Shown here piece after piece: positions 1,712 to 38,423 of a DNA stretch of 64,000 nucleotides. A program made the translations under genes and the position numbers. The DNA comes from an uncultured Acidobacteriota bacterium (lineage in GTDB: Bacteria; Acidobacteriota; Vicinamibacteria; Vicinamibacterales; SCN-69-37): positions 48,509 through 112,508 of the forward strand of contig CAWKHL010000004.1 of assembly GCA_963849525.1 (NCBI GenBank). Direction: 5' to 3'. Positions within the stretch are counted from its first letter, which is position 1. Every line of letters starts with the position of its first letter. Below the pieces are notes generated by a model. The model had not been told where the DNA came from and did not search any database. It was given only the letters and a program-made list of their open reading frames with translations.

Positions 1712-3028
1712 GTGCCATTTATGGATCCAATCCTGACCCGCGACGTTCGTGAGCCCAACAGCTACACCCTCGACTTCTATATGAAGCACGGGGGCGGCTA
1801 TGGCGCGCTCAAGAAGGCGCTCGGCATGACGCCCGACGCCGTCGTCGACGCGGTGAAGCAGTCGGGGCTGCGCGGGCGGGGCGGCGCGGGGTTTCCGACC
1901 GGCATGAAGTGGCAGTTCGTCGACAAGAAGTCGGCCAAACCGAAGTACATCTGCTGCAACGCCGACGAGAGCGAGCCCGGCACGTTCAAGGACCACGTGC
2001 TGATGGAGCGCAATCCGCACCTGCTCTTCGAGGGCTGCCTCATCGGCTGCTACGCGATTGGCGCGAAGGTCGCCTACATCTACATCCGGGGCGAGTTCTA
2101 CCACGTGCAGCAGGTGCTCGAAGCCGAGCTGGCCAAGGCTCGCGCGGCGGGACTCATCGGCAAGAACATCTTCGGCAGCGGCTTCGACTGCGACATCTTC
2201 ATCCATCGGGGCGCCGGCGCGTACGAAGCGGGCGAGGAGACCGCGCTCCTCGAGTCGCTCGAGGGCAAGCGCGCGCAGCCGCGGCTCAAGCCGCCGTTTC
2301 CCGCCGTGGCGGGCCTCTACGGCTGTCCAACCGCGGTGAACAACGTCGAGACGCTGTGCAACGTGCCCCTCATCATCGACCGCGGCGCCGAGTGGTTCGC
2401 CGGGATTGGCCCGGAGAAGAACAGCGGCCCGAAGCTCTACTGCCTGAGCGGCCACGTGCGGAAGCCCGGCGTCTATGAGGCGTCGATGGACGTGACGCTC
2501 CGCGACCTGATCTATGACGATCGGTTCGGCGGCGGCATCCGCGGCGGCCACGCGCTCAAGGCCGTCATTCCCGGCGGCTCCTCCGTGCCCGTGCTGCTCC
2601 CCGACCAGCTCGACATTCCCGCCAGCTTCGATGGCGTGGCCAAGGCCGGTTCGATGCTCGGCTCGGCCGGCATCATCGTCATGGACGAGACGACGTGCAT
2701 GGTGTGGGGGGCGGTGAACCTGCTGCATTTCTACAAGCACGAGTCGTGCGGCAAGTGCACGCCGTGCCGCGAGGGCTGCGACTGGCTCCATCGCCTGCTG
2801 CTGAAGATCGAGCGGGGGGAGGGCGAGACGCGCGACCTCGACCTGCTGCTCTCGGTCGCGGGCAACATCCTCGGCAAGACGCTCTGCGCGTTCGGCGACG
2901 CCGCCGCGACGCCGGTGCTCTCGACCGTCAAGACGTTCCGCGCCGAGTACGAGGCGCACATCCGCGAGGGCCGGTGCACCGTCCCCGCGCCGTGGCGGGC
3001 CGACGCGGTTCTGGCGGGAGCGCACTGA
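1712..3028 (+). CDS. nuoF: NADH-quinone oxidoreductase subunit F (51-kDa, FMN/NADH-binding)
   Basis: 438-aa ORF. GLRGRGGAGFPTGMKW (FMN/NADH site), ADESEPGTFKD and ESCGKCTPCREG (4Fe-4S) motifs. Confidence 0.95.
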   Translation: MPFMDPILTRDVREPNSYTLDFYMKHGGGYGALKKALGMTPDAVVDAVKQSGLRGRGGAGFPTGMKWQFVDKKSAKPKYICCNADESEPGTFKDHVLMERNPHLLFEGCLIGCYAIGAKVAYIYIRGEFYHVQQVLEAELAKARAAGLIGKNIFGSGFDCDIFIHRGAGAYEAGEETALLESLEGKRAQPRLKPPFPAVAGLYGCPTAVNNVETLCNVPLIIDRGAEWFAGIGPEKNSGPKLYCLSGHVRKPGVYEASMDVTLRDLIYDDRFGGGIRGGHALKAVIPGGSSVPVLLPDQLDIPASFDGVAKAGSMLGSAGIIVMDETTCMVWGAVNLLHFYKHESCGKCTPCREGCDWLHRLLLKIERGEGETRDLDLLLSVAGNILGKTLCAFGDAAATPVLSTVKTFRAEYEAHIREGRCTVPAPWRADAVLAGAH

Positions 3029-3260
3029 GAAAGTTAGAAGTTGGAAGACAGAAGTGAGAAGTAAGTGAGAAGAAAGAAGTAAAACGTGAGAAGTGAGAAG
3101 ACAGAAGTTGGAAGTACGTGAGAAGTGACGGGCGGAACGATGAGAGTTGGGCAAGGATCTCGCGATGAGGGGAGAGCGGTGAAACGAATGTTGGCGGCGG
3201 GAGGCGGGATGCGGCGGCGCACGACTTCTCACTTCTGTCTTCTAACTTTTGACTTTTAAC
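3029..3260. repeat. AGAAGNN heptamer arrays in inverted orientation around a ~93-nt unique core
   Basis: Left array 3029-3129 (gttagaa gttggaa gacagaa gtgagaa ...). Right array 3223-3260 (acttctcacttctgtcttctaactttt...) is its reverse complement type. Fills the whole nuoF-nuoH spacer. Confidence 0.85.
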
Positions 3261-4823: not shown

Positions 4824-4863
4824 GAAGTTCGAAGTTCGAAGTGTCGAAGTTCGAAGTGCTGAC

Positions 4864-7302: not shown

Positions 7303-8971
<1,669 letters not shown>

Positions 8972-11178: not shown

Positions 11179-11385
11179 TTAGCTTGGCTTGGTGACGTTA
11201 CCGGCCTGCGGCCCCTTGGGACCGTCGACGATCTCGAACTCGACCGCTTGGCCTTCTTCGAGCGTCCGGAATCCGGCCCCCTGGATTGCCGAGAAGTGAA
11301 CGAACACGTCGTTCCCTCCCTCACGCTCGATGAATCCGTAGCCCTTGGCGTTGTTGAACCACTTGACCTTGCCCGTGATGCGCAT
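11179..11385 (-). CDS. cspA: Cold-shock protein (CspA family)
   Basis: 68 aa. [34 protein letters not shown].. contains the RNP1 (KGYGFI) and RNP2 (VFVHF) motifs. Confidence 0.95.
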
Positions 11386-11553
11386 CGTGCCTGCCTTGCG
11401 AGAATCGCGGCGGGAGTCGCCGCATTACGACCCTGTCGCGCGTGAGCCCGACGGGGTACAAAAAAAGACCGCAACTGCGCGGCCTTCAGCTTTCGACGCC
11501 GGCCCGCCCAGCGTCAGCCCGCTACACTACTCAGGGGCCGTATGTTTGTCAAG

Positions 11554-11731
11554 GGCCATTCATTGGGCCATTTGGTCATTGAGGCAGTTGACCATTGACT
11601 CGCAATGTGCGGCAGTTGCTGGGGGGCGGTAGCTCATGGACGGATAGCGCCGAGTAGCTATAACACGGCAGCCAGGTTCAATGCCCCAATGGCTCAATGG
11701 CCCAATGGCCCAATGGCCCAATGGCCCAATA
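11554..11731. repeat. Inverted 8-nt arrays (CCATTGRG / CCCAATGG family) around a ~78-nt core
   Basis: Left: ggccattcattgggccatttggtcattgagg.. (11554-11601). Right: ccccaatggctcaatggcccaatggcccaatggcccaatggcccaat (11679-11731). Lies in the cspA-purH divergent spacer. Confidence 0.8.
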
Positions 11732-11742
11732 GGATCTATTTC

Positions 11743-13336
11743 ATGCGCGCATTACTGAGTGTCTCGAACAAGGCTGGATTGGTGCCCTTGGCGACCGCGT
11801 TGGCGGGCGGAGGATGGGAGTTGGTGTTGACCGGCGGAACCGCGCGGGCGCTCGAGCAGGCGGGGCTCGCAGGTGATCGGCATCTCGGACGTCACGGGCG
11901 TGCCGGAGATGATGGACGGCCGCGTGAAGACCCTTCACCCGAAGGTGCACGGCGGCATTCTGGCCCGGCGGCATCATGCGCCCGACCGTGCCGCGCTGGC
12001 CGAGCAGGCAATCGCGCCCATCGACCTCGTCGTCGTCAATCTCTATCCGTTCGCGGCTGCCGCGGCGCGCCCGGACATCGCGTTCGACGACCTGGTGGAG
12101 GAGATCGACATCGGCGGGCCAAGCCTGGTGCGCGCCGCCGCCAAGAACTTCCGTGACGTGCTCGTGGTCGTCGACCCGGCCGACTACGAAAGCGTGGTCG
12201 AGGCGCTCGCGGGCCCGGGCGGTCCGTCGCTCGCGTTTCGTTTCGAGCTCGCGCGGAAGGCGATTCGCCACACGGCCGACTACGACAAGATGATTGCCGC
12301 GACGCTCGACGAAGTGCAGGTGGATGAGGGGGCCGGGGCCTTCACGCGGAAGCGCGCGGGCGCGGGCGGCGAGCTGTTTCCGACGGTGTGGCAGCCGAAG
12401 CTCGAAAAGGTCCAGGACCTTCGGTACGGCGAGAATCCCCACCAGCCGGGCGCGTGGTACGCGGACGCCAAGGCCGGCTTCGGCGCCGCCAAAGTACACC
12501 AAGGCAAGGAGCTGTCCTTCAATAACCTGCTCGACCTCGACGCGGCGGCGCGCATCGCGCTCGAGTTCGAGGAGCCGGTCGCCGTCGTGATCAAGCACAC
12601 CAACCCGTGCGGCGTGGCGACCGGCGCGTCGCTCGCGGACGCTTACGTGCGCGCCCGCGACGCCGACGCGCTGTCGGCGTTCGGCAGCATCGTGGGGCTC
12701 AACCGGCCGCTCGACGAGGAGACCGCCCGTGCGATTGTGACGACGTTCGTCGAGGCCGTGCTCGCGCCCTCGCTCGAACCGCGCGAGGCGGTGCTGGCGA
12801 TTCTCGCGGCGAAGCCGAACCTGCGCGTCGTCACGGCGCGGTTCGACGCGCTGGCGAACGGCCGCGACGCCCGGTCGCTTCTCGGCGGCTGGCTGGTGCA
12901 GGGCCGGGACCACGCCGACGAGGCGCGCGCGCCGTGGCGCGCGGGTGAGGCGCCGCGCGTCGTGACCAAGCGCGCGCCGACGCCCGTCGAATGGCAGGCG
13001 CTCCGATTTGCGTGGCGCGTCTGCGCGCACGTGAAGTCGAACGCCGTCATCTTCACGTCCGCCGACCAGACGCTGGCCGTTGGCGCCGGCCAGATGAGCC
13101 GCGTGGATGCCGTCAACACGGCCGTGCTGAAAGCCGGCGGCGAGCGGCTGCGCGGCTCGGTGGCGGCCTCCGACGCCTTCTTCCCGTTTCGCGACGGGCT
13201 CGACGCCGTCGCGAAGGCCGGTGCCACCGCCGTCGTCCAGCCCGGCGGATCGAGAAACGACGCCGAGGTCATTGCCGCCGCCGATGAGCACGGCCTGGCG
13301 ATGGTCTTCACCGGCCGGAGGCATTTCAGACACTGA
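11743..13336 (+). pseudogene. purH: Bifunctional AICAR transformylase / IMP cyclohydrolase, one +1 frame break near codon 42
   Basis: MRALLSVSNKAGLVPLATALAGGGWELVLTGGTARALEQAGLA runs in the frame of ATG 11743. [30 protein letters not shown].. continues one frame on from 11873. One surplus nt lies at 11869-11872. Confidence 0.9.
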
Positions 13337-13340
13337 AGCC

Positions 13341-13632
13341 AGTCATTGGGCCATTGGGCCATTGAGCCATTTGGCCATTGGGCCATTGAGCCATTGAGTC
13401 ATTGAGTCATTGAGTCATTGAGTCATTGGGCGATTGAGTCGTTGAGTTATTGAGTGATCGGCTGTTGGCTATTGGTAACTGAAGGGCATGTGTGCCCAGC
13501 GGCACTGGTTGATGTCAACTTCGCCGACGACCACACAGCGGACAGCGAGGCCCAGGTGCCCCAATACCCCAATGACCCAATGGCCCAATGGCCCAATGGC
13601 CCAATGACCCAATGACCCAATGGCCCAATAAC
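13341..13632. repeat. Large inverted pair of 8-nt arrays (NCATTGRG x ~14 / CCCAATGR x ~9) around a ~100-nt core
   Basis: 13341-13455: tcattgggccattgggccattgagccatttgg..gtcattgagtcattgagtcattgag.. 13558-13630: gccccaataccccaatgacccaatggcccaatggcccaatgg.. The core contains the small hairpin gggcatgtgtgccc. Confidence 0.9.
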
Positions 13633-13652
13633 CAACAGTCATAGTTCTTCCC

Positions 13653-15306
13653 GTGAAGCGCTTTCTCAGTCCGCTCCTTGTCCTGCTCGCGCTGGCGATC
13701 CCGGTGTTCTTCGTGTGCCTGGGCGCGAATTCGATCTGGGACGCGAATGAGGCGTTCTATGTCGAGACGCCGCGGCAGATGATCCTGTCGGGCGACTACA
13801 TCAATCCGAGCTTCAACGGCGCGCCGCGGTTCAACAAGCCGGTGCTGAGCTACTGGATGGTCGCGGGACTGTACCGGCTGTTCGGGACGTCGGTGGTCGT
13901 CGAGCGGGTCGGCATCGCCCTCGGCGCGCTGGGCATCGTGCTCGCGGCCTTCCTCATCGGCCGCGCGCTGCGATCGACCCGCACGGGAGTGCTCGCGGCG
14001 CTGGTGGTCGCCACCGCGCCCCAGGTCGTCTGGTTCGCGCGGCGGATCTTCATCGACGTCTATCTCACGCTGTTCACCTCATTGGCGCTGGCCTGCTTCG
14101 TGCTCGCCGAACGGCACGCGGCCCATCGCCGGCGCTGGCTGGTCCTCATGTACGTCGCGCTCGGGCTCGGCGTGCTGACGAAGGGCCCGGTGGCCGTCGC
14201 GCTGCCGGGGCTGGCGTGCGTGCTGTGGCTCGCGTCGAGCCGCCGGCTCGGCGACCTCAAGCGCTTCATGCTCGTGCCCGGCGCGCTCGATTGTCCTGGC
14301 CATTGTGGTGCCCTGGTATGCGGCCGTCTATGCACAGCATGGATGGACGTATATCGTGAGCTTCTTCATAGGCGAGAACCTCGGACGCTATACGAACGCG
14401 ATGACGCCGGGCGGCCGCGGCGTGCTGTTCTACATACCGGTTCTTCTGGGCGGACTGTTTCCATGGGCACCGCTCGTGCTCGTGCCGCTGTGGCAGGTGG
14501 CGGCCGAGTGGTGGCGGCCGTCGGCCACTGGCGGCGGCCGCGCCGCGCTGCGCCGGCTGCTCTGGCTGTGGATCGTCGTGTTCGTCGCGGTGTTCTCGTT
14601 TTCGCGAACCAAGGAAGACCTCTACATCTTTCCCGTGGTGCCCGCGGTGGCCGCGCTCGTCGCCGACGCGCTCGTGGAGCGCGTGGAGGGCGGACGCGCG
14701 CGCGCGCTGGGCGCCGTCTTCATCGTGGTGTGCGGGCTGTGCCTCGTCGTCGCGCCGGCGGCATACTGGCTGTTCGGTCCGTCGGCCGGCTACTACGCGA
14801 TGGGCGGCGCCTCCACGTTCGCCGTGGTCCTGGGAACGACCGGGCTCGCGGCCGGCCTGTTCTGGCTGCGCGGTCGCCCTGCGACGGGGATCGCGGCGCT
14901 TGGCGCGGGGTTCGTCGTGCTGAACTACCTGTTCGTGGCGCAGGTGCTGCCCCAGGCCGAGCGGTCAAAGCCCGTGCCGCCCCTGGCGCGGACGCTTGCG
15001 GCCGACGCGGCGCCGGATGCACGTGTCGGCTCGTTCAACATGGGGCTCCAGAGCTTTGTGTACTACTCGGGCCGGTCCGCGATCGCGGAGATCGACTCGC
15101 TCGACGAGGCGCGCACGTTCTTCGCCGGCGACCGCGAAGCATGGGCGATCATGGGCGGCGACGAGTGGACCGAGGTTCAACGCGCCGTCCCGGGAACCTG
15201 CGTCGCCGCCGAGCGCCATCTCTCGATCTTCGACGCGAAGCTCGGCGACATCATCACCCGCACCCCGCCGCCGGCGGTGCTGCTCGTGAAGAACAGGTGC
15301 CATTGA
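13653..15306 (+). pseudogene. Glycosyltransferase family 39 (ArnT/PMT-like GT-C), one +1 frame break
   Basis: N-terminal part: ..ANSIWDANEAFYVETPRQMILSGDYINPSFNGAPRFNKPVLSYWMVAG..LKRFMLVPGAL in the frame of 13653. It continues IVLAIVVPWYAAVYAQHGW..LLVKNRCH* in the frame of track ORF 14305..15306. Junction near 14289. Confidence 0.85.
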
Positions 15307-15573
15307 GCCATTGGGTCATTGGGCCATTGGGTCATTGGGTCATTGGGTCAATGGGCCATTTGGGTCACTAAGACAAACTACGCCGAAGTCACCCGTAGCC
15401 AATTAATGAGACGCGTCGAACCCAATGGGTCGATTGGCTCAATGGCCCAATGGCTCAATGACCCAATGACCCAATGACCCAATGGCCCAATGGCCCAATG
15501 GCTCAATGGCCCAATGGCCCAATGGCCCAATGGCCCAATGGCCCAATGGCCCAATGACCCAATGACCCAACGG
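15299..15573. repeat. Inverted 8-nt arrays (CCATTGGG / CCCAATGG family) between convergent genes
   Basis: Left 15299-15368, right 15421-15573 (~19 units), with a ~50-nt core. The arrays abut or overlap the stop codons of both flanking genes. Confidence 0.9.
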
Positions 15574-15574
15574 C

Positions 15575-16774
15575 TCATCCCCCGATCTTCGGCAGCCACG
15601 GGCCGAGGGCGAGGCGCAGGACGATGAGCGTCGCCCAGGTGACGGCTGGCAGGGCGGGGATGGCGGCGTCGAGGCGGCGGATGGTCTGGCGCACCCAGCC
15701 CCAGGACTGGTAGGCGACGACGGCGCCGGCCGCGCCGAGCAAGTAGGTCGCCGAGAACGCGTAGCGTTCCGCAAACCGACTGACGCCGCTCAAGAGCAGC
15801 GCGGCGAACGCCGTGAAGCCGAGGACGAACACCAATCCGCGCCGCGCCGGCGATCGGTCGACCGCCGGCCGATCCGTCGGGCCCGCGCCGCGCGTCCACG
15901 CGAGCCACAGGAGCGCGAGGCTCCACGGCGCCGGCTGATAGAGCAGGCGCGTGAGGTAGAAGGCGACGTGCCGAAAGAACGTGCCGGCCTGGGCGATGGG
16001 CGTCGAGACGGTGACGGGGGCCAGCTGGCGGTTCCAGTAGGCCAGCCAGAACGAGTCGCCCGTGATGCGGATGTAGGAGATATCGTAGGCCGCCGCGGCG
16101 ACGAACATGGCCGCGCCGGCGACGAGCCAGGCGACCACGGGCCGCGCGCGCGACCCGCCGCCGGGATTGACCAGGATCCACAGCCCCGCGGCCGCCAGGA
16201 TGAGCGCCACGAACGCGCCTTTGATCACCAGGCCGCCGGCGAACCCGCAGGCGACGAGCGCCACCCACCACCACGAGCGCTTGACGCCCAGCAGGCCCAA
16301 GAGCGTCGCGAGCAGACAGACGAGCATCGGATATTCGTGGTTGTCGCGGATGCGGAACACGAAGGCGAGCGGCATGATCTGCAGCAGGACGAGGAGGGCG
16401 CGTCCTTCTTCCGCCGACGTCAGGCGGCCCGCCAGTTGGCCTGCGAGCAGGAGCGCCAGCAGGCCGGCGCCAATGCCGAAGACGTACGCGCCCTGCACCG
16501 GGGGGAGGCCCAGGCGTCCAAGGGCGGCCGGCACCCAGAAGAGGCCGGCCGGGTTCTCGATGAAGTACCCGGATAGATGCGCGTCGGGCCAGAGCCCCCA
16601 CCATTCGGGCGACGTCCATCGATTGAGGGGCTGGGTCGAGAGCTTGGCCGACAGATCGGCGTAGAGCGCCGAGTCCGGGTCATGGCTCTTGAACTTCATC
16701 GCGACCAGCAGCGCGGCGACCGCGATGAAGGCGATCACCCACACCACCCGATCGCGGCGCGAGAGCAGCCGCAT
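15575..16774 (-). CDS. Putative GT-C family membrane glycosyltransferase (ArnT/PMT_2-like)
   Basis: Real start MRLLSRRDRVVWVIAF.. at 16774 inside track ORF 15575..17032. About 11 TM segments and an early DPDSALYADLS motif typical of GT-C enzymes. Sits in the envelope gene block. Confidence 0.55.
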   Translation of the reverse strand: MRLLSRRDRVVWVIAFIAVAALLVAMKFKSHDPDSALYADLSAKLSTQPLNRWTSPEWWGLWPDAHLSGYFIENPAGLFWVPAALGRLGLPPVQGAYVFGIGAGLLALLLAGQLAGRLTSAEEGRALLVLLQIMPLAFVFRIRDNHEYPMLVCLLATLLGLLGVKRSWWWVALVACGFAGGLVIKGAFVALILAAAGLWILVNPGGGSRARPVVAWLVAGAAMFVAAAAYDISYIRITGDSFWLAYWNRQLAPVTVSTPIAQAGTFFRHVAFYLTRLLYQPAPWSLALLWLAWTRGAGPTDRPAVDRSPARRGLVFVLGFTAFAALLLSGVSRFAERYAFSATYLLGAAGAVVAYQSWGWVRQTIRRLDAAIPALPAVTWATLIVLRLALGPWLPKIGG

Positions 16775-20069: not shown

Positions 20070-20240
20070 TCAGGCTTCAACGGTCGCTTCATCGATGAGC
20101 ATGACCGGGATGTCGTCCTTGATCGGGTAGACGCGGCGGCACTGGTCGCAGCGCAGCGCGGCGCCATCCTTGACCAGATGGACGGGCGTCTTGCACGCGG
20201 GGCAGACAAGAATCTCGAGGAGCGCGGGATCGACGGCCAT
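20070..20240 (-). CDS. Trm112 / UPF0434 family small zinc-ribbon protein
   Basis: 56 aa. MAVDPALLEILVCPACKTPVHLVKDGAALRCDQCRRVYPIKDDIPVMLIDEATVEA. These are the last codons of the spurious 665-aa track ORF. Confidence 0.85.
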   Translation of the reverse strand: MAVDPALLEILVCPACKTPVHLVKDGAALRCDQCRRVYPIKDDIPVMLIDEATVEA

Positions 20241-20279
20241 CGGAGGAATATAGCAGGATATGCGAAAATAGCATCCCAA

Positions 20280-21920
20280 ATGACCACTGCCATGTTCGTG
20301 CTCGCGGCGGCGATGACCGTCCAGACGCCGGCGCCTGCCTCGCCGCCGGCGGCATCGACCGACGCGCTGGCGCAGGCCTACTTTCTCTTCATCGAAGGCC
20401 GCACGGCCGAAGACCGCGCCGACCTGGCGACGGCCATCGCCGACTACAAGCAGGCGCTCGAGCAGGTGCCCACCGCCGCCGAGATCCATGCGCAGCTGGC
20501 GGACGTGTACGCGCGCGACGGCAAGACGAGCGAGGCGGTGACCGAAGCGCAGAGCGCGCTCGAGCTCGACGCCAAGAATCGCGAGGCCAACCGCACGCTC
20601 GGGCTCATCCAGGCCCAGCTCGCCGAGCGCACCTCGGACGCGGCCCGCGCCGCAACGCTCGTCACCCAGGCGATCGGTCATCTCGAAGTGGTGGCCGGCG
20701 ACCGGACGATCGACCTCGACGTCCAGCTCACGCTCGGGCGGCTGTACGTGCGCGTCAAGGACTATCCAAAGGCCATCCTGACGCTCCGGACCTTCCTGCT
20801 CGACGTGCCCAATTACCCGCAGGCGGCGATGCTGCTGGCGCAGTCCTACGAGCAGGTTGACCGCGTGCCGGACGCCATCACCGTGCTCAACTCGCTCGTG
20901 GCCGACGACCCGACCCAGGCGCGCGCGTGGGCGTGGCTGGGCGACCTGAACGAGGAAGTGCGCCAATGGAAGCCGGCCGCGGCCGCATGGGCCGAACTGG
21001 CCAATCAGGATCCGGAGAACGTGACGTATCGAATGCGCCAGGCGGGCGACCTGGCGAACGGCGGCGACCTGCCCGGAGCCCGTCAGGTCCTGGCCGACGC
21101 GACGAAGGCCTCGCCGACCGAGATTGGGCCCTGGTACGTGCTGTCCCGGATCGAGCGGCGTGCCGGGAATACCGCGGCGGCCGAAGACGCGGCCCGGCAC
21201 ATCATGACGCTCGACGCGACTGACTCGCGCGGACCGCTCGCGCTGGCCGACGCCAAAGGCGCCGAGGGAGACCTGCACGGCGTGATCGACACGCTCCAGC
21301 CGGTCGTGGCCGAACCGCGCGCCGAGGACGTGGCCGACGGGACCTACGCCGAAATGGTCACGCGCCTCGCGAGCGCGCTCCAGGGGACCGGTGACTCGGC
21401 GCGCGCGACGCAAGTGCTCGAGGCCGCCACGCAGCGCGACTCGAAGAACCTCACGCTGCGGTTCGACCTGGCCGAGGCCTATCAGGCCAGCCATCAATTC
21501 GATCGGGCCGAGCAGACCTACCGGGATCTGATTGCCGCCGACCCGAAGAATGCCGAGGCGCTGAACGACTTCGGCTACATGCTGGCCGACCGCGGCGAGC
21601 AGCTCGATGAAGCGGCCGGCCTGATTCGGCGCGCGGTCGCGCTCGATCCGGAGAACCCTTCCTTCCAGGACAGCCTCGGGTGGGTCTTGTTCAAGCAGAA
21701 GAAGTTCGAGGACGCCCGCGCGCCGCTCGAGCGCGCGGCGGGCGCTCGGCCCACCGTGTCGGTGATCCAGGACCACATGGCGCAGGTGTATTTCCAGCTG
21801 AAGATGTACCGCGAAGCCGCCGCGGCCTGGGACAAGGCGCTCGCCGGAGACCGTGACGGCATGGATGCGGCCGACGCGGCCACGCGTCGCGACCAGGCCA
21901 GGGCGCTGGCCGCGCAGTAG
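20280..21920 (+). CDS. Secreted tetratricopeptide (TPR) repeat protein
   Basis: ATG 20280, MTTAMFVLAAAMTVQTPAPA (signal-like), followed by many TPR-like 34-aa units. Only the last 546 codons of track ORF 18957..21920 are credible. Confidence 0.75.
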   Translation: MTTAMFVLAAAMTVQTPAPASPPAASTDALAQAYFLFIEGRTAEDRADLATAIADYKQALEQVPTAAEIHAQLADVYARDGKTSEAVTEAQSALELDAKNREANRTLGLIQAQLAERTSDAARAATLVTQAIGHLEVVAGDRTIDLDVQLTLGRLYVRVKDYPKAILTLRTFLLDVPNYPQAAMLLAQSYEQVDRVPDAITVLNSLVADDPTQARAWAWLGDLNEEVRQWKPAAAAWAELANQDPENVTYRMRQAGDLANGGDLPGARQVLADATKASPTEIGPWYVLSRIERRAGNTAAAEDAARHIMTLDATDSRGPLALADAKGAEGDLHGVIDTLQPVVAEPRAEDVADGTYAEMVTRLASALQGTGDSARATQVLEAATQRDSKNLTLRFDLAEAYQASHQFDRAEQTYRDLIAADPKNAEALNDFGYMLADRGEQLDEAAGLIRRAVALDPENPSFQDSLGWVLFKQKKFEDARAPLERAAGARPTVSVIQDHMAQVYFQLKMYREAAAAWDKALAGDRDGMDAADAATRRDQARALAAQ

Positions 21921-21932
21921 ACCGCGCGCCTC

Positions 21933-22793
21933 ATGTCCGACGCCTTCCCCATCAACGACGCCAGCGGTGTGACTGTTCCGACAGGTCTCGCGCGGCGCCG
22001 CCGCCTGGCCTGGTTCGCCGCGGGCCTGGTCCTGGCGTTCGGTTTCGCCGGCGCGTGCGCGCCGCATCCGATCGTGCTGCCGTCCGGGCCCGGGGCGGCC
22101 GCGCCCGACGCGGCGGCGGCCTGGGCCGAGGCCGCCGCGAGCTGCCGGCCGACGTCCACCTACTCAGCAGCGCTGCACGTGACCGGGCGGGTCGAGGGCC
22201 GCCGTCTTCGCGCGACCATCAACGGGGCCGTGACGTCAGCCGACCAGATCCGGCTCGAGATGCCCGTGGCCTTCGGCCCGCCGGGGTTCGTGCTGGCCGG
22301 CGGCGCGGGGCACGCCACGCTCCTCTTGCCCCGCGACCACGAAGTCGTCACCGCGCCGCCCGATCAGATCGTCCGTGCGCTCATCGGGCTGCCGCTCGGT
22401 CCGCGAGCGCTCCTGGCCGTGCTGGCCGGCTGCGCCGTGCAATCGACGGATCTGGCCCGTGCGGTACGATACGGCGACTTGGTAGCGGTCACGACCTCCG
22501 GGGGGCGAGTCTTTCTACGCGAGCAGGCGGGGCACTGGCGGATTGTCGCCGCCGACCTTGGCGAGTGGGTCGTCGAGTACCAGGCCTTCGACGGCCCGTG
22601 GCCATCGGCCTTGCGGCTGGCGTCGGCGGCCGGCCGCACGCCCGTGATCGCGCTGTCGGTCGAGATTCGCCAAATGGAAGTGAACAGAACGTTTACGACG
22701 GCGGACTTTTCGCTGGCCGTCCCGCCGGGAACCATGCCGCGCTCGATTGACGAACTTCACCGCGGCGGCCCGATGGCCGACACGCGCCCGTAA
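21933..22793 (+). CDS. Lipoprotein, LolB/DUF4292-like (position-based)
   Basis: 286 aa with lipobox ..LAFGFAGAC. Lies immediately upstream of ispE-prs, the same relative position as lolB in E. coli. Confidence 0.45.
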   Translation: MSDAFPINDASGVTVPTGLARRRRLAWFAAGLVLAFGFAGACAPHPIVLPSGPGAAAPDAAAAWAEAAASCRPTSTYSAALHVTGRVEGRRLRATINGAVTSADQIRLEMPVAFGPPGFVLAGGAGHATLLLPRDHEVVTAPPDQIVRALIGLPLGPRALLAVLAGCAVQSTDLARAVRYGDLVAVTTSGGRVFLREQAGHWRIVAADLGEWVVEYQAFDGPWPSALRLASAAGRTPVIALSVEIRQMEVNRTFTTADFSLAVPPGTMPRSIDELHRGGPMADTRP

Positions 22794-22805
22794 CCGGATG
22801 TCGCC

Positions 22806-23696
22806 GTGTCCCGCTCGTTGACGCTGCGCCCGTCCGCGAAGATCAACCTGACGCTGCGCGTGGGGCCGCGCCGGCCCGACGGCTTTCACGACGTGCGCAC
22901 GCTCATGCAGTCGGTGGCCCTGCACGACACGCTGGTCGTCACGGCGCGCCGCGGGCCGTTCGCGCTCTTCGGAGGCGGGCCGGGCCTGCCGACGGATTGG
23001 ACCAACCTGGTCTGGCGGGCGGCCGACGCGCTGTGGACGGCGCTCGGCCGGCCGGGCGACGCGCGCGACGCGCACGTGCGTCTGCAGAAGGAGATTCCGG
23101 CCGCGGCGGGCCTCGGCGGCGGCAGCGCCGACGCGGCCGCGGCCCTCGCGGGCCTGAACGTCGTGTGGGGCGGGCGGCTGACACGCGGCGACCTGATTCA
23201 GGTGGCCGCCGCCCTGGGCTCGGACGTGCCCTTCTTCCTGTACGGCGGCACGGCCTGCGCGGCCGGCCGGGGCGAGGACGTCTATCCGGTGGACGACGTG
23301 CGGCGTGCGGGCGTCGTGCTCATCAAGCCGTCGTTCGACGTGGCAACGGCCGACGCCTATCGATGGCTGGACGAGGATTGGGCCGCGGGCCTCGCGGACG
23401 CCGCTTGGGGGGGCCGCACGCTCGAGGTCGGGTGGCCGAGCGGGCCGCTCACGCTTGGCAACGACCTCGAGGCGCCGGTGGCGCGGCGGCACCCTGGTGT
23501 GGACGAGATGCTGGCGGCCGTGCGCGCGGAAGGGGCGCAGGTGGCGGCCATGACCGGGAGCGGCTCGGCCGTCTTCGGGGTGTTCGCCGAGGCGGCCGCA
23601 CGGCGGGCGGCCGAGCGCCTGCAGCGGCCGGCGTGGCTCGTGCGGCTTACGAGGACCCTGTCCCGCGCCGAAGCCGCCCGGCGCATGGGCCTGTGA
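22806..23696 (+). CDS. ispE: 4-diphosphocytidyl-2-C-methyl-D-erythritol kinase
   Basis: 296 aa. ..PSAKINLTLRVGPRRPDGFHDV..IPAAAGLGGGSADAAAAL.. is the GHMP kinase motif. prs is downstream. Confidence 0.9.
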   Translation: MSRSLTLRPSAKINLTLRVGPRRPDGFHDVRTLMQSVALHDTLVVTARRGPFALFGGGPGLPTDWTNLVWRAADALWTALGRPGDARDAHVRLQKEIPAAAGLGGGSADAAAALAGLNVVWGGRLTRGDLIQVAAALGSDVPFFLYGGTACAAGRGEDVYPVDDVRRAGVVLIKPSFDVATADAYRWLDEDWAAGLADAAWGGRTLEVGWPSGPLTLGNDLEAPVARRHPGVDEMLAAVRAEGAQVAAMTGSGSAVFGVFAEAAARRAAERLQRPAWLVRLTRTLSRAEAARRMGL

Positions 23697-23808
23697 TAAA
23701 CTTTCGGGTTTGCGAAGGGGACTTGGGCGCGGTCCAGAGTAACGCCACGTCCTGAGGCGCGGGCGACTGTCGCGACTCGGGGGGCAGTTCGACGAGCGAA
23801 GGGTGTTT

Positions 23809-23883
23809 TGGGGCGTGGCCAAGCGGTAAGGCGCGGGACTTTGGATCCCGTATTCGAAGGTTCGAATCCTTCCGCCCCAACCA
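23809..23883 (+). tRNA. tRNA-Gln (anticodon TTG)
   Basis: tggggcgtggccaagcggtaaggcgcgggacTTTGGatcccgt..gaaggttcgaatccttccgccccaACCA. Acceptor tggggcg/cgcccca, T-arm gaagg/ccttc, loop cTTTGGa gives anticodon TTG. CCA is encoded. Confidence 0.9.
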
Positions 23884-23934
23884 GTGCCACTGCGGGTTCA
23901 GGCGGTCGCGGCGCGCAACGCCGTCGAGAGTGTC

Positions 23935-24879
23935 ATGAGTCACGGTCAGCTCAAGTTGTTTACCGGGAGCGCGCACCCGGCTCTGGCGCACGAGATTGCC
24001 GAGCAGCTCGATATTCCGCTCGGCAACGCCCGTTTGCATCGGTTTCCGGACACCGAGGTCTCGTTCCAGATCGACGAGAACATCCGCGGGACCGACGTCT
24101 TTATCGTGCAGCCGACCTCGGCGCCGGTTGACGAGCACCTCGTCGAGTTGTGCGTGATGATCGATGCGTTTCGCCGGTCGTCGGCGTCGCGGATCACGGC
24201 GGTCGTGCCCTATTACGGCTACGCCCGGCAGGACCGGAAGGACAAGCCGCGCGTGCCGATTTCGGCCAAGCTCGTGGCCAATCTGCTGAGCGCCGCCGGG
24301 ACGAATCGCGTGCTGACGATGGATCTGCACAAGGCACAGATCCAGGGGTTCTTTGACATTCCGGTCGATCATCTGTTCGCCGCGCCGGCGATCATCGATT
24401 ACCTGGTCCGGCAGAACTTCGGACCGGTCACGATCGTCTCGCCGGACGCGGGCGGCGCCGAGCGGGCGCGCGCGTATGCCAAGCGGCTCGATGCCGACCT
24501 GGCGATCATCGACAAGCGGCGCAGCGAGGACGGGACGGCCGAGGTCATGAACGTCGTCGGGTCGGTCAAAGGGCGCGTGTGCGTGATTGCCGACGACATC
24601 ATCGACACGGCCGGGACGATTCAGAAGGCGGCGCTCGCGCTGCAGGAGAACGGCGCGAGCCGGGTGCTGGCGAGCGCGGTGCACGGCGTGCTGTCGGGGC
24701 CGGCGATGCAGCGCATCGAGTCGGCGCCGATCGACCGGCTCGTCGTGACCAACTCGATCCCGCTCAGCGGGACCGCGGCGGCCTGCAAGAAGATCGTCGT
24801 GCTCTCGGTGGCGCGCCTGCTGGCGCAGGCCATCCGGAGCATTCACGAAGAGACGTCGGTGTCGAAGTTGTTTGTTTAG
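23935..24879 (+). CDS. prs: Ribose-phosphate pyrophosphokinase
   Basis: 314 aa from ATG 23935. ..VVPYYGYARQDRK..DLHKAQIQGFF..VIADDIIDTAGT.. are PRPP synthetase motifs. Confidence 0.95.
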   Translation: MSHGQLKLFTGSAHPALAHEIAEQLDIPLGNARLHRFPDTEVSFQIDENIRGTDVFIVQPTSAPVDEHLVELCVMIDAFRRSSASRITAVVPYYGYARQDRKDKPRVPISAKLVANLLSAAGTNRVLTMDLHKAQIQGFFDIPVDHLFAAPAIIDYLVRQNFGPVTIVSPDAGGAERARAYAKRLDADLAIIDKRRSEDGTAEVMNVVGSVKGRVCVIADDIIDTAGTIQKAALALQENGASRVLASAVHGVLSGPAMQRIESAPIDRLVVTNSIPLSGTAAACKKIVVLSVARLLAQAIRSIHEETSVSKLFV

Positions 24880-24885
24880 GGCGTC

Positions 24886-24951
24886 AAGTTGGAAGGCAGA
24901 AGCCAGAAGTCAGAAGTGACTTCCGACTTTTGGCTTCTCACTTCTAACTTG
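24886..24951. repeat. Inverted AGAAGNN heptamer arrays (imperfect ~30-bp hairpin) after prs
   Basis: caagttggaaggcagaagccagaagtcagaagtgac / ttccgacttttggcttctcacttctaacttgg. About 26 of 32 positions are complementary. Confidence 0.8.
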
Positions 24952-24964
24952 GAGAGGTTCACTC

Positions 24965-25642
24965 ATGGAAGCGACACTTGAAGCCGTTCGCCGCGAGGGG
25001 TTCGGCAAGAATGAGGCGGGGCGCTTGCGGCGGAGCGGCCGGATTCCGGCGGTGCTCTACGGCGGGAATGACCGGAAGGCCGAATCGGTGGCGGTTGACC
25101 CGAAGGCGCTGATGCACATTCTTCATTCGCAGGGCGGCACCAACACGCTCATTGCGCTGAAGATCGACGGCGCCGACGATACGCGGGTGCTCGTCAAGGA
25201 GTTTCAGCTCGACCCGGTGGGCCACAAGCTGCTGCACGCCGACTTCTACCGCGTCGCCATGGACCGGGTGCTCCAGGTGACCATTCCGGTGCGGCTGACG
25301 GGGGAGGCGAAGACGGCGAAGGCCCTGGGCGGCATGGTCGACTTCGTCCACCGCGAGCTGGTCATCGAGTGCCTGCCGGCGAACATTCCCGAGCACATCA
25401 CGGTGGACGTCACCGACCTGATGATCAACCAGGGCGTGCGCGTCCGCGACCTGCCGACCGACGGCACGTGGACGGCCGTCAGCGAGCCGGACACGCTGAT
25501 CGTCCATGTCGTCTCGCCGAAGGCCGAGGTCGAGCCGGTCGCGGCCGACGCGGCGGCGGCGGCGCCCGTGGCGGCCGAGCCCGAGGTCATCAAGAAGGGC
25601 AAGGTCGAGAAGGCCGACGAACCGGAGGAGAAGAAGAAGTAG
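24965..25642 (+). CDS. rplY: 50S ribosomal protein L25 / general stress protein Ctc
   Basis: 225 aa. ..REGFGKNEAGRLRRSGRIPAVLYG..HKLLHADFYRV.. with an acidic/Lys-rich tail. Classical prs-ctc-pth order. Confidence 0.9.
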   Translation: MEATLEAVRREGFGKNEAGRLRRSGRIPAVLYGGNDRKAESVAVDPKALMHILHSQGGTNTLIALKIDGADDTRVLVKEFQLDPVGHKLLHADFYRVAMDRVLQVTIPVRLTGEAKTAKALGGMVDFVHRELVIECLPANIPEHITVDVTDLMINQGVRVRDLPTDGTWTAVSEPDTLIVHVVSPKAEVEPVAADAAAAAPVAAEPEVIKKGKVEKADEPEEKKK

Positions 25643-25674
25643 CGCGCCGCGATTCGCGCCTGGCGCCTTTGACG

Positions 25675-26259
25675 ATGAAGTTGATCGCCGGCCTTGGCAA
25701 CGTGCCGGAATCCCGATACGGGGGGACGCGCCACAATGTCGGGTTCGAGGTGGTCGACGAGGTCGCGCGGCGCCACGGGGCGGTGTTCGGCAGCGCGCCG
25801 GCCGACGCGCTCGAGGCCCGATGGCGGCACGGCGGCGAGGCGGCGCTGCTCGTCAAGCCGCTGACGCTGATGAACCTCAGCGGCGAGGCCATCGGCGCGC
25901 TGGTGCGGTACTACCGGGTGGCGCCGCCGGATCTGTTGGTCGTCTGCGACGACGTGAATCTGCCCCTCGGGCGGCTCCGCGCGCGGGCGTCCGGATCCGA
26001 AGGGGGACACAACGGGCTGCGCTCGATTGCGCAGCATCTGGGTACGACCGACTACGCGCGCTTGCGCGTTGGCGTGGGTCGGGGAGATGTGAGGCGCGAT
26101 CTGGCCGGCCACGTGCTGGCGAGATTCGAGCCGGACGAGCGTCCCGGGATTGAGGCTGCGATTACCCGGGCCGCCGATGCCGTCGAGGTCTGGACCGCCG
26201 AGGGTCTGGCGCGCGTGATGGCGACGTTCAATCGGGCCGAAGAAGATGACGTGAAGTAA
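25675..26259 (+). CDS. pth: Peptidyl-tRNA hydrolase
   Basis: 194 aa from ATG 25675. MKLIAGLGNVPESRYGGTRHNVGFEVVD..KPLTLMNLSGEA..GSEGGHNGLRSI.. Confidence 0.93.
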   Translation: MKLIAGLGNVPESRYGGTRHNVGFEVVDEVARRHGAVFGSAPADALEARWRHGGEAALLVKPLTLMNLSGEAIGALVRYYRVAPPDLLVVCDDVNLPLGRLRARASGSEGGHNGLRSIAQHLGTTDYARLRVGVGRGDVRRDLAGHVLARFEPDERPGIEAAITRAADAVEVWTAEGLARVMATFNRAEEDDVK

Positions 26260-26419
26260 GGCGGACCGCGCGGCGGTCCGGGCAACACACTCCTTGCCGC
26301 CTTCGATGGAAGGCGGCCGCGCCTGTGACGCGCGGACGACGCGGGGCGAGGGCCCCGCGCGCACGCGCGGCGGAGGTCGGGGCAGACCGCCCCGGGTGAG
26401 CACGTCCAAGAGGAGAGTC

Positions 26420-26875
26420 ATGAGCACCGTTCGTCAGTACCAGTTGGTTTATATCGCCCCGCCCGACGCGACCGAGGAAGCGCTGGCGGAACTGCATCAG
26501 CAGGTCGCCACCGTCGTCGATCGGTTCGGCGGCGTCATCGATCGCACCGAACCTTGGGGCCGGCGGAAGCTGGCCTACGAGATCGCCCGCCAGCGCGAGG
26601 GGAACTACGTGCTGGAGGTCATCAGCGGGCCCGCCAGCATGACGGCGGAGCTCGACCGCCGCCTCCGCGTGCTCGACAACGTCCTGCGCCACCTGATCGT
26701 GCGCGTCGATGAGGAATTGGCGGTGGCCGAGCGCGCCCAGGTGCGCCGCAAGACCGACATGGCCAAGCGGCGCGTCCGTCGCGGGTTGCCGCCCGAGCCC
26801 ACCGAGGGCGAGCGCAAGCGGCAGGATGACGACGACGATGACGGGCGCGACGGGGACAGGGGAGGAGACCGATGA
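26420..26875 (+). CDS. rpsF: 30S ribosomal protein S6 (acidic C-terminal tail)
   Basis: ATG 26420 preceded by aggagag. [31 protein letters not shown].. Followed directly by rpsR. Confidence 0.9.
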
Positions 26876-27162
26876 GCGACTACGACAAGGAGCGGGGCGG
26901 CCGATCGGGCGGCAAGAAGGACAGCAGCGAGAAGGGCGGACGCCGGACGTTCTTTCGCCGCCGCCGGGTCTGCAAGTTCTGCGTTGAGAAGATCGACTAC
27001 ATCAACTACAAGGACGTGCGGCTGCTCGCGCCGTTCATTCCCGAGCGCGGCAAGATTCAGCCGCGCCGCATCTCCGGGACCTGCGCGACGCATCAGCGGG
27101 CGCTGCAGACGGCCATCAAGCGCGCGCGGCAGCTTGCGCTCGTGCCGTACGCCACCGACTAG
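26872..27162 (+). CDS. rpsR: 30S ribosomal protein S18
   Basis: 96 aa. ..[64 protein letters not shown].. Confidence 0.95.
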
Positions 27163-27171
27163 GGGACCGAT

Positions 27172-27621
27172 ATGCCCATCGAAGTGATCCTGAAGGAATA
27201 CGTCGAGCACCTCGGCAACCGCGGCGAGGTCGTCAAGGTGGCCGACGGCTACGCGCGCAACTACCTCCTCCCGCGCAAGCTGGCCCTCGCCGTGACCGAC
27301 GAGAACAAGCGCCAGATCGAGCGTGAGCGCACGAAAGCCGAAGCCCGCGAGCGCGAAGAGCGCACGGCGGCCGAGGCCATGGCCAGCCGCCTCGAGACGG
27401 CCGAGGTGTCGATCGCGCGCCGCGTCGGCGAGAACGAGATGCTGTACGGGTCGGTCACGTCGGCCGACATCGCCGACGCGCTGGCCGCCAAGGATCTCGT
27501 CGTTGACCGGCGGCGGATTCTGATGGACGAGCCGCTCAAGGCGCTCGGCGAGCACACGGTGTCGGTGAAGCTGTACCGCGACGTGACCGTGGCGCTCAAA
27601 GTGCAGGTCGTCCCGGCGTAA
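27172..27621 (+). CDS. rplI: 50S ribosomal protein L9
   Basis: 149 aa. MPIEVILKEYVEHLGNRGEVVKVADGYARNYLLPRKLA.. Confidence 0.95.
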   Translation: MPIEVILKEYVEHLGNRGEVVKVADGYARNYLLPRKLALAVTDENKRQIERERTKAEAREREERTAAEAMASRLETAEVSIARRVGENEMLYGSVTSADIADALAAKDLVVDRRRILMDEPLKALGEHTVSVKLYRDVTVALKVQVVPA

Positions 27622-27640
27622 GCGGGAACGGAGGGGGCGC

Positions 27641-28987
27641 ATGTCCGACCGCACGCTTCCGCACAATCTCGAGGCGGAGAAGTGCGTGCTCGGGGCCGTC
27701 CTCATCAACAACCAGGCGTTCAATCAGGCCGCCGAGGTGCTCGACGCGGAGGACTTCTTTCGAGATGCGCACCGGCGCATCTTCGAGAAGATGGTCATCT
27801 TGACCGACCGGAGCGAGCCGGTCGATCCGGTCACGCTCAAGGACGAGCTGGCCCGGGCCGGGGAAATCGAGAGCGTCGGCGGCCCGGCCTACATCTCGGC
27901 GCTCACCGACCTCGTCCCCCGGTCGGCCAACGTCGAGTACTACGCCCGGATCGTCAAGGAGAAGTTGACGCTGCGGCGGCTGATCCAATCGGCCACCGGG
28001 ATTCTCTCGCGCGCCTACGAGGCCGAAGAGGACGCCGACCTGCTGCTCGACGAGGCGGAGCGGTCGATCTTCCAGATCGCCGAGAACCGCCTGCGCGCCG
28101 GCTTCGTGCCGCTGAGCGAACTGGTCGCCTCCAGCTATCAGATCATCGAGAAGCTGCACGAGCAGAAGGGGCTCGTCACGGGCGTGCCGAGCGGGTTCGT
28201 CGACCTCGACGACCTCACGTCGGGCTTCCAGAAAGCGGACCTCGTGATCGTGGCCGCGCGCCCATCCATGGGCAAGACCAGCTTCGTCCTCAACCTCGCG
28301 CAGCACTGCGGGATCGACGCCGGTAAGACGGTCGGCATCTTCAGCCTCGAGATGTCGAAGGAGCAGCTCTTCATCCGGATGCTCACGTCCGAGGCGCGGA
28401 TCGACGCCCACCGCTTCCGAGGCGGGTTTCTGGGCGACACCGACTATCAGCGGCTGGCCGTCGCCAGCGCGCGGCTGCACGACGCCAAGGTGTTCATCGA
28501 CGACTCGCCGGCCATCGGCATCCTCGAGATGCGCGCCAAGGCGCGGCGGCTGAAGCTCGAGCACGGACTCGACATGCTCGTCATCGACTACCTGCAGCTC
28601 ATGCAGGGGCGCGGGCGGTTCGACAACCGCCAGCAGGAGCTGGCGTCGATCTCACGGTCGCTCAAGATTCTGGCCAAGGAGCTCGACGTGCCGATCCTGG
28701 CGCTGAGCCAGCTCAGCCGGGCGCCGGAAGCGCGCGGCGATCATCGGCCGCAGCTCTCCGACCTGCGCGAGTCGGGCGCCCTCGAGCAGGACGCCGACGT
28801 CGTGCTCTTCATCTTCCGCGAGGAAATGTACGGGGGCGAGGATCGCCCGCCGGAGAGCGAAGGCGTGGCCGAGATCATCATCGGCAAGCAGCGCAACGGC
28901 CCGACCGGGACCGTGCGGCTCGCGTTCCTGAAGCAGTACACGCGGTTCGAAAATCTGCAGGCGGCCGGAGCCACCGGGCCGTTCTGA
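27641..28987 (+). CDS. dnaB: Replicative DNA helicase DnaB
   Basis: 448 aa. ..LPHNLEAEKCVLGAVL..GVPSGFVDLDDLTSGF..AARPSMGKTSF..LSQLSRAPE..FREEMY.. Confidence 0.95.
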   Translation: MSDRTLPHNLEAEKCVLGAVLINNQAFNQAAEVLDAEDFFRDAHRRIFEKMVILTDRSEPVDPVTLKDELARAGEIESVGGPAYISALTDLVPRSANVEYYARIVKEKLTLRRLIQSATGILSRAYEAEEDADLLLDEAERSIFQIAENRLRAGFVPLSELVASSYQIIEKLHEQKGLVTGVPSGFVDLDDLTSGFQKADLVIVAARPSMGKTSFVLNLAQHCGIDAGKTVGIFSLEMSKEQLFIRMLTSEARIDAHRFRGGFLGDTDYQRLAVASARLHDAKVFIDDSPAIGILEMRAKARRLKLEHGLDMLVIDYLQLMQGRGRFDNRQQELASISRSLKILAKELDVPILALSQLSRAPEARGDHRPQLSDLRESGALEQDADVVLFIFREEMYGGEDRPPESEGVAEIIIGKQRNGPTGTVRLAFLKQYTRFENLQAAGATGPF

Positions 28988-35679: not shown

Positions 35680-35697
35680 TTGTCCTACTAGAATCAA

Positions 35698-38348: not shown

Positions 38349-38377
38349 CAAGATAGAGGGTTGTGGGCGACAGACTT

Positions 38378-38423
38378 CCAACTTCTGTCTTCTAACTTCT
38401 AACTTCTAACTTCTAACTTTCAC
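38378..38423. repeat. CTTCTAA heptamer array (single orientation)
   Basis: cttccaacttctgtcttctaacttctaacttctaacttctaactt ends 1-5 nt before the rlmB GTG. Confidence 0.85.

Follow-up and report, generated by a model that had tools for sequence, protein, structure and literature searches.

The DNA analysed here is a stretch of 64,000 nt (the window) from an uncultured acidobacterium of the order Vicinamibacterales, and three successive intergenic spacers around its purH gene are each occupied by a tandem array of an 8-nt unit, a unique centre and a second array of the reverse-complementary unit, in the order (CCATTGGG)n, centre, (CCCAATGG)n. We denote these as site A (11554-11732), site B (13341-13632) and site C (15299-15577). 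With a probability that we put at roughly 55%, they belong as gene-less forms to a class of inserted hairpin elements, of the type represented by the cyanobacterial STRR sequences (repetitive sequences of short tandem repeats) and by the stems of ribosomal RNA (rRNA) intervening sequences (IVS), and the complete form of such an element carries a gene of the TIGR02436/PF05635 family, encoding a four-helix-bundle protein, between its arms. Elements of this kind occupy intergenic spacers and often extend all the way from a stop codon to a start codon, and related genomes differ by their gain and loss as blocks. A single genome holds several unit families, families are common to different genomes, and the arrays and the four-helix-bundle gene travel together across phyla. 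The octamer form found in this acidobacterium, which is devoid of an open reading frame (ORF), is best filed under the STRR or IVS-stem kind.

Three array hairpins around purH

At site A, a 5' arm of about 5.5 degenerate units of the CCATTGGG family (11554-11599, plus strand as for all arms of the three sites) is separated by a centre of 78 nt (11600-11677) from a 3' arm of about 6.5 units of CCCAATGG (11678-11732) that ends 10 nt upstream of the purH start codon, an ATG at 11743. Site B fills the spacer between purH and the gene for a PMT/ArnT-like glycosyltransferase. Its 5' arm (13341-13461), with about 15 units of the form NCATTGRG whose degeneracy grows toward the centre, begins 5 nt past the purH stop codon (13334-13336), and beyond a centre of 95 nt (13462-13556) with neither an ORF nor an Rfam match, the 3' arm of about 9 CCCAATGR units (13557-13632) ends 20 nt upstream of the GTG (13653) of the glycosyltransferase gene. 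Site C takes up the whole spacer between this gene, on the plus strand, and a convergent gene on the minus strand that encodes a second glycosyltransferase, a PMT_2 protein. The TGA stop codon of the former (15304-15306) falls within the first unit, CCATTGAG, of a 5' arm with about 8 units and 69 nt (15299-15367), and the last bases of the 3' arm (15575-15577) are the stop codon of the latter. The centre comprises 52 nt (15368-15419), and with about 19 units and 158 nt (15420-15577) the 3' arm is double the length of its partner.

Tandem Repeats Finder assigns a period of 8 to each of the three sites. The program reports 14.4 copies with 84% matches for the 5' arm of site B (13341-13455) and 8.8 copies with 91% matches for its 3' arm (13560-13629), 6.5 copies at 11679-11730 with a degenerate partner at 11560-11581 for site A, and 7.8 and 17.5 copies at 15299-15360 and 15435-15574, respectively, for site C. 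The arms of site B (13342-13417 and 13557-13632, 76 nt each and 139 nt apart) are 84% complementary, and at site C complementarity reaches 94% over an arm pair of 65 nt. The 14-mer CCATTGRGYCATTG, which spans two units, occurs 44 times with at most one mismatch, in every case within sites A-C, where shuffled sequences lead to an expectation of 0.02. The preliminary description, made from the sequence alone, had reported an array, a unique centre and an inverted array following purH, the same family in the same layout at three sites, and units that vary among each other; all of this is borne out by the sequence, the repeat analysis and the complementarity of the arms, and the variation between units consists predominantly of transitions (GGG/GAG, CCA/TCA).

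The centres of sites A-C share no sequence with one another or with the centres of other sites, that of site A matches nothing else in the window or in the comparison loci L001-L102, and none of the three, with lengths of 52-95 nt, contains an ORF. The sites are therefore not copies of one miniature inverted-repeat transposable element (MITE) with a conserved core, in line with the preliminary description, which had not taken them for copies of a single mobile element. Note that none of the six reading frames of (CCATTGGG)n contains a stop codon, so that ORF finders read through the arrays. The result is tails of the HWVIGPLG type and spurious overlapping ORFs, as seen in the window at 13653-15371 and also in loci L094 and L100.

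The RNA of each site is predicted to fold into one giant hairpin on either strand, with stems of 60-75 bp, and the giant imperfect hairpins that had been proposed are thus recovered with z-scores down to -13. For the plus and minus strands, respectively, the folding energies are -152 and -177 kcal/mol at site B (z -9 and -12), -176 and -187 kcal/mol at site C (z -12 and -13) and -88 and -78 kcal/mol at site A (z -3). A search of the whole window against Rfam at gathering scores returned six tRNAs only, and permissive thresholds on 11300-15800 added two weak matches, far under the gathering score and within coding sequence, and none in sites A-C. Scans for intrinsic terminators and promoters were empty at the three sites, whose stems have no trailing T-run. 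A terminator-like hairpin with a T-run is present on the minus strand at 11464-11487, just downstream of site A in the minus sense, and a minus-strand transcript crossing the hairpin of site A would stop there.

Arrays around four-helix-bundle genes

The link to a protein family comes from elements with a long centre of about 500 nt, three of three of which encode a four-helix-bundle protein of the TIGR02436/PF05635 ("23S rRNA IVS") family. One of them is located in the window on the minus strand (30170-30755), with arms (GAAGTTA)n at 30170-30202 and (TAACTTC)n at 30724-30755 around a gene at about 30248-30620; the other two, loci L100 and L094 of the related metagenome-assembled genome (MAG) SMAG_U8798, have arms of the CCATTGGG unit itself. 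The TIGR02436 E-values are 6e-20 for L100, 3e-10 for L094 and 2e-8 for the element in the window, where an exact 8-bp tandem duplication (30509-30525, GGTTTGCC GGTTTGCC) disrupts the gene; this duplication, equal in step size to the arrays, may be a genuine mutation. The nearest solved structure of the protein is 2RLD, an entry with five identical chains, and models of anti-phage defence systems gave no match to the four-helix proteins.

The association was analyzed in 36 loci with relatives of the four-helix protein from many phyla, which were drawn by means of one peptide pattern and are in some cases mutually related. Here, the density of arrays of period 7 or 8 is 20-fold higher up to 320 nt from the gene (2.37 per kb) than in the remainder of the same loci (0.12 per kb). 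With a threshold of at least 3.5 copies, arrays are found on both sides of the gene in 21 loci, on one side in 9 and on neither in 6. At a threshold of at least 3.0 copies 22 loci are two-sided, and in every one of them the arrays are inverted, the right unit lying within two mismatches of the reverse complement of the left one, and within one mismatch in 16 of the 22. Closely related four-helix proteins are flanked by the same or nearly the same unit. The combination of arrays and a TIGR02436 gene was seen in Acidobacteriota, Cyanobacteriota, Bacteroidota, Ignavibacteriota/Chlorobiota and Verrucomicrobiota/Kiritimatiellia, and also in Spirochaetota, Chloroflexota, Campylobacteraceae and one MAG of the candidate phyla radiation.

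The same arrangement is found in an independent sample, finished plasmids of cultured strains; 31 plasmid records matched, and ten of them were inspected (Nostoc punctiforme PCC 73102, N. flagelliforme, Anabaena cylindrica PCC 7122, Gloeocapsa, Planktothrix, Pseudanabaena, Chlorohelix, Treponema saccharophilum, Chondrinema and Bernardetia). Heptamer-type repeat tracts adjoin the annotated 'four helix bundle protein' gene in all ten, and Tandem Repeats Finder detects arrays of period 7 on both sides in most, with clear inverted pairs in N. punctiforme, N. flagelliforme, Gloeocapsa and Planktothrix. In N. punctiforme the order is (CAATTCG)x4.7, the four-helix gene, and (CGAATTG)x4.9 beginning at its stop codon. 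The genes with their arrays are typically placed between the genes of an operon and are co-oriented with them in nine of ten cases. Among the insertion points (L146-L155) are defence and transport operons, namely cas2|cas1 in A. cylindrica, DrmD|PglX in Planktothrix, DUF1156|Swt1-HEPN in Gloeocapsa and Chlorohelix, and an RND (resistance-nodulation-division) adaptor|permease pair in Chondrinema.

We further observed a polarity of the arms. Of about 30 informative pairs from the window and from loci L103-L138 and L146-L155, 22-23 carry the G-rich or purine-rich version of the unit in the 5' arm, and the opposite layout, (CCCAATGG)n...(CCATTGGG)n, was not seen once. As an inverted repeat is identical on both strands, this polarity is a real structural constraint.

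Turnover, other array families and rival explanations

SMAG_U8798 is syntenic with 20084-27998 of the window at 66-85% DNA identity and permits a direct comparison of spacers. The one between tRNA-Gln and prs holds a CCATTGGG hairpin in SMAG_U8798 and 48 nt of unrelated sequence in the window, while the spacer at 24879-24966 holds a GAAGNCA hairpin in the window and none in SMAG_U8798 (L101), where the stop codon adjoins the ribosome-binding site. In the former case (L101 3990-4180 versus window 23880-23935) the prs ATG is found inside the last hairpin unit, CCAATGAG. The convergent spacer of site C, about 270 nt in the window, is 15-40 nt long and array-free in the more distant relatives L139, L140 and L143; its counterpart in L141 contains arrays of other units (GGGGCTT, TGCCTGA, GCCTCAA), and other Vicinamibacterales have different units again at gene boundaries. 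The CCATTGGG family also recurs at non-orthologous sites of other genomes, namely in a Terriglobia MAG and, on 9 contigs, in another Vicinamibacterales MAG. Since orthologous spacers are array-free or filled with other units, the sites are recent insertions or expansions with rapid turnover and not conserved regulatory RNA. Independent assemblies or close relatives of the strain were not found by exact-protein look-ups of L11 or with an exact 27-mer from the purH end in metagenomes; PurH has its best matches in Vicinamibacterales and other Acidobacteriota at 62-67% identity, and the nearest relatives of the neighbouring PMT_2 protein are 53-61% identical.

In the array-free L139 (7170-7215) the junction reads TGCCCTTGAGCC...GGCTCA, compared to TGCCATTGAGCC[array]GGCTCA in the window (15290-15310, 15570-15580), and is one base from a unit. 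Such unit-like empty junctions, in L139 and L101, hint without statistics at an insertion guided by microhomology or at seeding from local sequence. Short single runs of (CCATTGGG)n with 4-8 copies also exist in unrelated genomes (L082, L084, L086, L090, L093, L097, L098), whose hosts include Streptomyces incanus, Paraburkholderia sp. J63, Xanthomonas pisi, Lamprobacter and Glaciecola, and in X. pisi and Glaciecola they adjoin other arrays of 6-8 nt. The octamer itself is not lineage-specific, and these single runs may be unrelated slippage products.

Within the window at least five families of 7- or 8-nt arrays occupy about 15 intergenic spacers, abutting stop or start codons. Most of these sites consist of two opposed arrays around a centre; some have one array alone. 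Heptamers of the GAAGTNA family are present at 1639-1701, 3026-3260, 4824-4857, 24892-24950, 38374-38419 and 42756-42789, besides the full-length element at 30170-30755. Three of them, all on the plus strand, are ORF-less hairpins: 1639-1701 with 4 nt between its arms, 3026-3260 with arms at 3026-3108 and 3224-3260 and a unique centre of 115 nt, and the GAAGNCA hairpin at 24892-24950. Those at 4824-4857 and 38374-38419 are single arrays, as is the one-armed GAAGTTA array at 42756-42789 (plus strand) in the nusG-rplK spacer. A hairpin of the GGGGTTCC octamer family lies at 35557-35680 (plus strand), the octamers GGTTCCGG being found there and in a single array at 700-774. GGCCTCN/NGGGGCC heptamer arrays (GGCCYNG) are located at 8859-8958 (plus strand), with further arrays of the GGCCYNG type at 43860-43924 in the rplK-rplA spacer, and octamers of GATCGGNC at 46010-46110 in the rplL-rpoB spacer. 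As arrays also fill these ribosomal-protein and rpoB operon spacers, they are a habit of the genome and not a feature of purH.

Two longer tandem repeats directly follow single arrays, one of 76 nt x2.6 with 99% identity (784-977, after 700-774) and one of 95 nt x6.5 with 96% identity (42793-43408, after 42756-42789). Both terminate in GGGGGTGGGGCCCCGCGAG, after which comes a purine-rich stretch that closes in GAAGATG, the ATG of which is the start codon of a gene at about 991 and of rplK at 43422, respectively, and they look like another repeat family tied to gene starts. Single-nucleotide frameshifts in purH (about 11865-11875) and in the PMT-like gene (about 14290-14300) are probably indel errors of long-read sequencing.

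On the reading that sites A-C are gene-less hairpin elements, transcription of the host operon would let the two arms pair as a double-stranded RNA stem of 60-75 bp, and this stem would probably be cut by RNase III, by analogy to the stem of the Coxiella IVS, for which such cutting has been demonstrated. Cutting would either remove the element from the transcript or divide the transcript, and the element would be tolerated within operons. At site C, between convergent genes, the stem would also block read-through. Arm length would shift by slipped-strand mispairing, and because both arms are periodic, any register pairs and the stem survives the gain or loss of units without base-by-base compensation. 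Spread to new spacers would proceed via some copying mechanism. Most likely, the elements do not regulate purH but are passengers of a selfish or near-neutral kind.

A number of results weigh against this reading. No credible remnant of a decayed four-helix-bundle gene was detected in the centres of sites A-C, the best blastx E-values against a 20-sequence database being 0.01-0.02, and no four-helix gene flanked by CCATTGGG arrays is present in the 64-kb window. The way in which the 36 loci were drawn, and their partial relatedness, must be counted here as well. Neither a target-site duplication at the filled and empty junctions compared nor a mobilising enzyme was identified. Site B pairs better on the minus strand, yet both of its flanking genes are on the plus strand. 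RNA-level selection was not detected: in the sense strand of stems flanking the four-helix gene, mismatches of the G.U type (33) are not in excess over A.C (37), next to 58 transversions. Nor does the succession of unit variants in one arm convincingly mirror that in the other: in a permutation test, the observed value was reached by 419, 100 and 1108 of 2000 shuffles at sites B, C and A, respectively. Finally, both transcription through the sites and the action of RNase III on them are steps that we infer, the latter from Coxiella. The negative RNA-level tests fit young, largely neutral elements with fast turnover, and they leave room for a role at the level of DNA or of protein binding.

This raises the question whether a different account would serve better. 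A non-mirrored unit order fits slippage-driven turnover within each arm, as in microsatellites, and the diverging microsatellites of the preliminary description hold to this extent. It is rather unlikely, however, that the arrays are pure by-products, grown locally by slippage with neither a mobile element nor a function and inverted by fold-back template switching. Unique centres, the absence of a G.U-over-A.C bias, the existence of one-armed arrays, the 8-bp duplication inside the gene at 30509-30525 and the array-free L139 spacer that is already one base from a unit all agree with such an origin. Arrays that are just microsatellites would nevertheless not account for one octamer family at non-orthologous sites of other genomes, for block insertions relative to relatives, for the mere handful of unit families per genome, or for the flanking of one specific gene family, where 22 of 22 two-sided arrays are inverted across phyla and gene and unit co-diverge. 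The latter facts also bear on the idea that the units are putative binding sites of a sequence-specific protein, most plausibly the cognate four-helix bundle with its pentameric Avd/IVS-protein fold, on DNA or on single-stranded RNA, and that the arrays act through this protein rather than by pairing of their arms. The tight linkage and co-variation of protein and unit, the one-armed arrays, the undetected selection on RNA pairing and the five identical chains of 2RLD would suit it, and Avd, a related protein of diversity-generating retroelements, binds nucleic acid. The consistent inversion suits a stem rather than a binding array, though, and many arrays face a single four-helix gene in 64 kb, a pseudogene, and we consider both the binding itself and its action via the protein unlikely.

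Miniature inverted-repeat transposons of the foldback type, with termini that happen to be tandem arrays and a transposase encoded elsewhere, would explain the long inverted termini and the differing presence at orthologous spacers, and the termini of eukaryotic Foldback elements likewise consist of short tandem subrepeats. They are very unlikely given copies without a conserved core, compared junctions without target-site duplication, arms as unequal as those of site C (69 versus 158 nt), and sites with no associated transposase, the associated gene having no known recombinase fold. Little probability likewise remains for host-selected terminators or stabilisers of mRNA 3' ends for purH and its neighbours, in the manner of repetitive extragenic palindromic (REP) sequences and bacterial interspersed mosaic elements (BIMEs). 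Stems that begin 0-5 nt from stop codons and the position of site C exactly between two convergent genes speak for them, as does the stabilising or terminating role proposed for STRR hairpins (PMC2670836). The stems have no T-run after them and yielded nothing in the terminator scan, however, the same spacers lack the sites in relatives and they are thus not conserved regulatory parts, and the arrays also occur within tight operons (nusG-rplK-rplA, rplL-rpoB), where termination would be harmful. An artefact of long-read assembly or sequencing, to which the frameshifts in purH and the PMT-like gene might point, is extremely improbable: the same unit family and layout are present in short-read k141 contigs of another MAG, such arrays occur on finished isolate plasmids, and they are set precisely between intact gene ends.

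Beyond sites A-C, we tentatively entertain the possibility that inverted 7/8-nt arrays and the TIGR02436 gene together form one widespread, unrecognised element whose protein recognises or propagates its own unit; STRRs, rRNA IVS, repeats of the TAACTGA type and the octamer hairpins would be its products, and gene-less hairpins its non-autonomous progeny. STRR repeats have been known since 1990 and rRNA IVS with a conserved ORF since 1993. To our knowledge, the origin and function of both are unexplained, as are those of the very large family of 'four helix bundle proteins'. Our observations suggest that the three are parts of one type of element, and if the coupling of arrays and TIGR02436 genes across phyla were confirmed genome-wide, it would unite several long-unexplained families of repeats and genes. 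The observations also demonstrate abundant octamer and heptamer versions in soil Acidobacteriota, even in the spacers of the ribosomal-protein/rpoB operon. In practical terms, the open frames of (CCATTGGG)n extend spurious ORFs, and the arrays are likely to break short-read assemblies and could serve as strain markers, similar to STRR fingerprinting in Nostoc.

Relation to known repeat systems

Several repeat classes can be set apart from sites A-C. In a CRISPR (clustered regularly interspaced short palindromic repeats) array, direct repeats of 24-48 nt alternate with unique spacers of similar length, whereas the units here have 8 nt, are contiguous and form two opposed arrays. One mobile element with a common core is ruled out by the uniqueness of all centres, and MITEs or foldback elements with a conserved core and target-site duplications are discounted by the unrelated centres and by filled and empty junctions that show no duplication. 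Eukaryotic Foldback (FB) transposons possess long inverted termini of short tandem subrepeats, variable or absent centres and unequal arms; they differ in being eukaryotic and transposase-dependent and in having longer subrepeats, and homology is not implied. REP, BIME and REPIN (REP doublet forming hairpin) sequences resemble sites A-C in being abundant palindromic repeats outside genes, with hairpins in spacers and at gene 3' ends. REPs are single imperfect palindromes of 20-40 nt with a conserved GTAG/CGTC head and are mobilised by RAYT (REP-associated tyrosine transposase) proteins (PMC3733652), while the arms of sites A-C are tandem 8-mers devoid of this head and with no RAYT gene nearby, a negative for which no dedicated search of the 64 kb was made. 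The TAACTGA heptamers of Beggiatoaceae, Cyanobacteria and Bacteroidetes (MacGregor 2015) are almost all intergenic, often end beside a start codon, vary in presence between close relatives and have a patchy distribution across phyla (PMC4679880). They differ from sites A-C in their 169 direct sets versus 1 inverted set, their 2-6 copies of essentially one unit and the absence of a hairpin layout (PMC4679880).

A closer relationship is found with the IVS of 23S rRNA, as in Coxiella burnetii and Leptospira. The Coxiella IVS contains an ORF for S23p, a 'hypothetical ribosomal S23 protein', and tandem GACAGAT heptamers in strain-variable number; its ends pair as a 28-bp stem, which RNase III cleaves where the first heptamer begins (PMC4990558). 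Terminal inverted sequences and a long stem around a variable centre are shared with sites A-C, and the full-length relatives of the arrays in the window carry the same PF05635/TIGR02436 gene family. The differences are in location, as sites A-C lie between protein-coding genes and not in helix 25 or 45 of 23S rRNA, of which the window contains none (nor any other rRNA), in their lack of an ORF, and in a unit of 8 nt with arms of up to 158 nt versus the 28-bp stem.

The STRR heptamers of cyanobacteria form hairpins in spacers, such as that between hupS and hupL and the one upstream of hoxW, and have been proposed to act as transcript stabilisers or terminators (PMC2670836). In the Nostoc trnL intron, degenerate heptanucleotide repeats pair as the P6b hairpin, with varying copy number and inserted non-repeat sequence (PMC3488679). 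Common to these systems and to sites A-C are opposed short tandem units that pair, an intergenic position or one within RNAs, and a possible non-repeat middle, and copy number is strain-variable in the known cases (PMC2670836, PMC3488679). In addition, it is arrays of such a kind that flank four-helix-bundle genes on the Nostoc and Anabaena plasmids. STRRs differ as heptamers of heterocystous cyanobacteria from the octamers of an acidobacterium with 68% G+C in the window and unrelated unit sequences. Their intergenic position and opposed arrays able to form a hairpin are found again at sites A-C, while the heptanucleotide period is not, the families with a period of 7 being located elsewhere in the window.

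The literature searched, which does not cover all journals, describes no such repeats in Vicinamibacteria or other Acidobacteriota, and it states no link between STRRs and four-helix-bundle genes nor a general one between short-unit arrays and genes of the four-helix-bundle IVS type, a single-case note on the Coxiella heptamers excepted. The preliminary description had recognised no described repeat class in sites A-C. Their organisation does match that of STRRs (PMC2670836), of the Nostoc trnL P6b hairpin (PMC3488679) and of the Coxiella IVS stem (PMC4990558), and what appears to be new is that such arrays occur in Acidobacteriota, that their unit is an octamer, and that a general link to four-helix-bundle genes exists.

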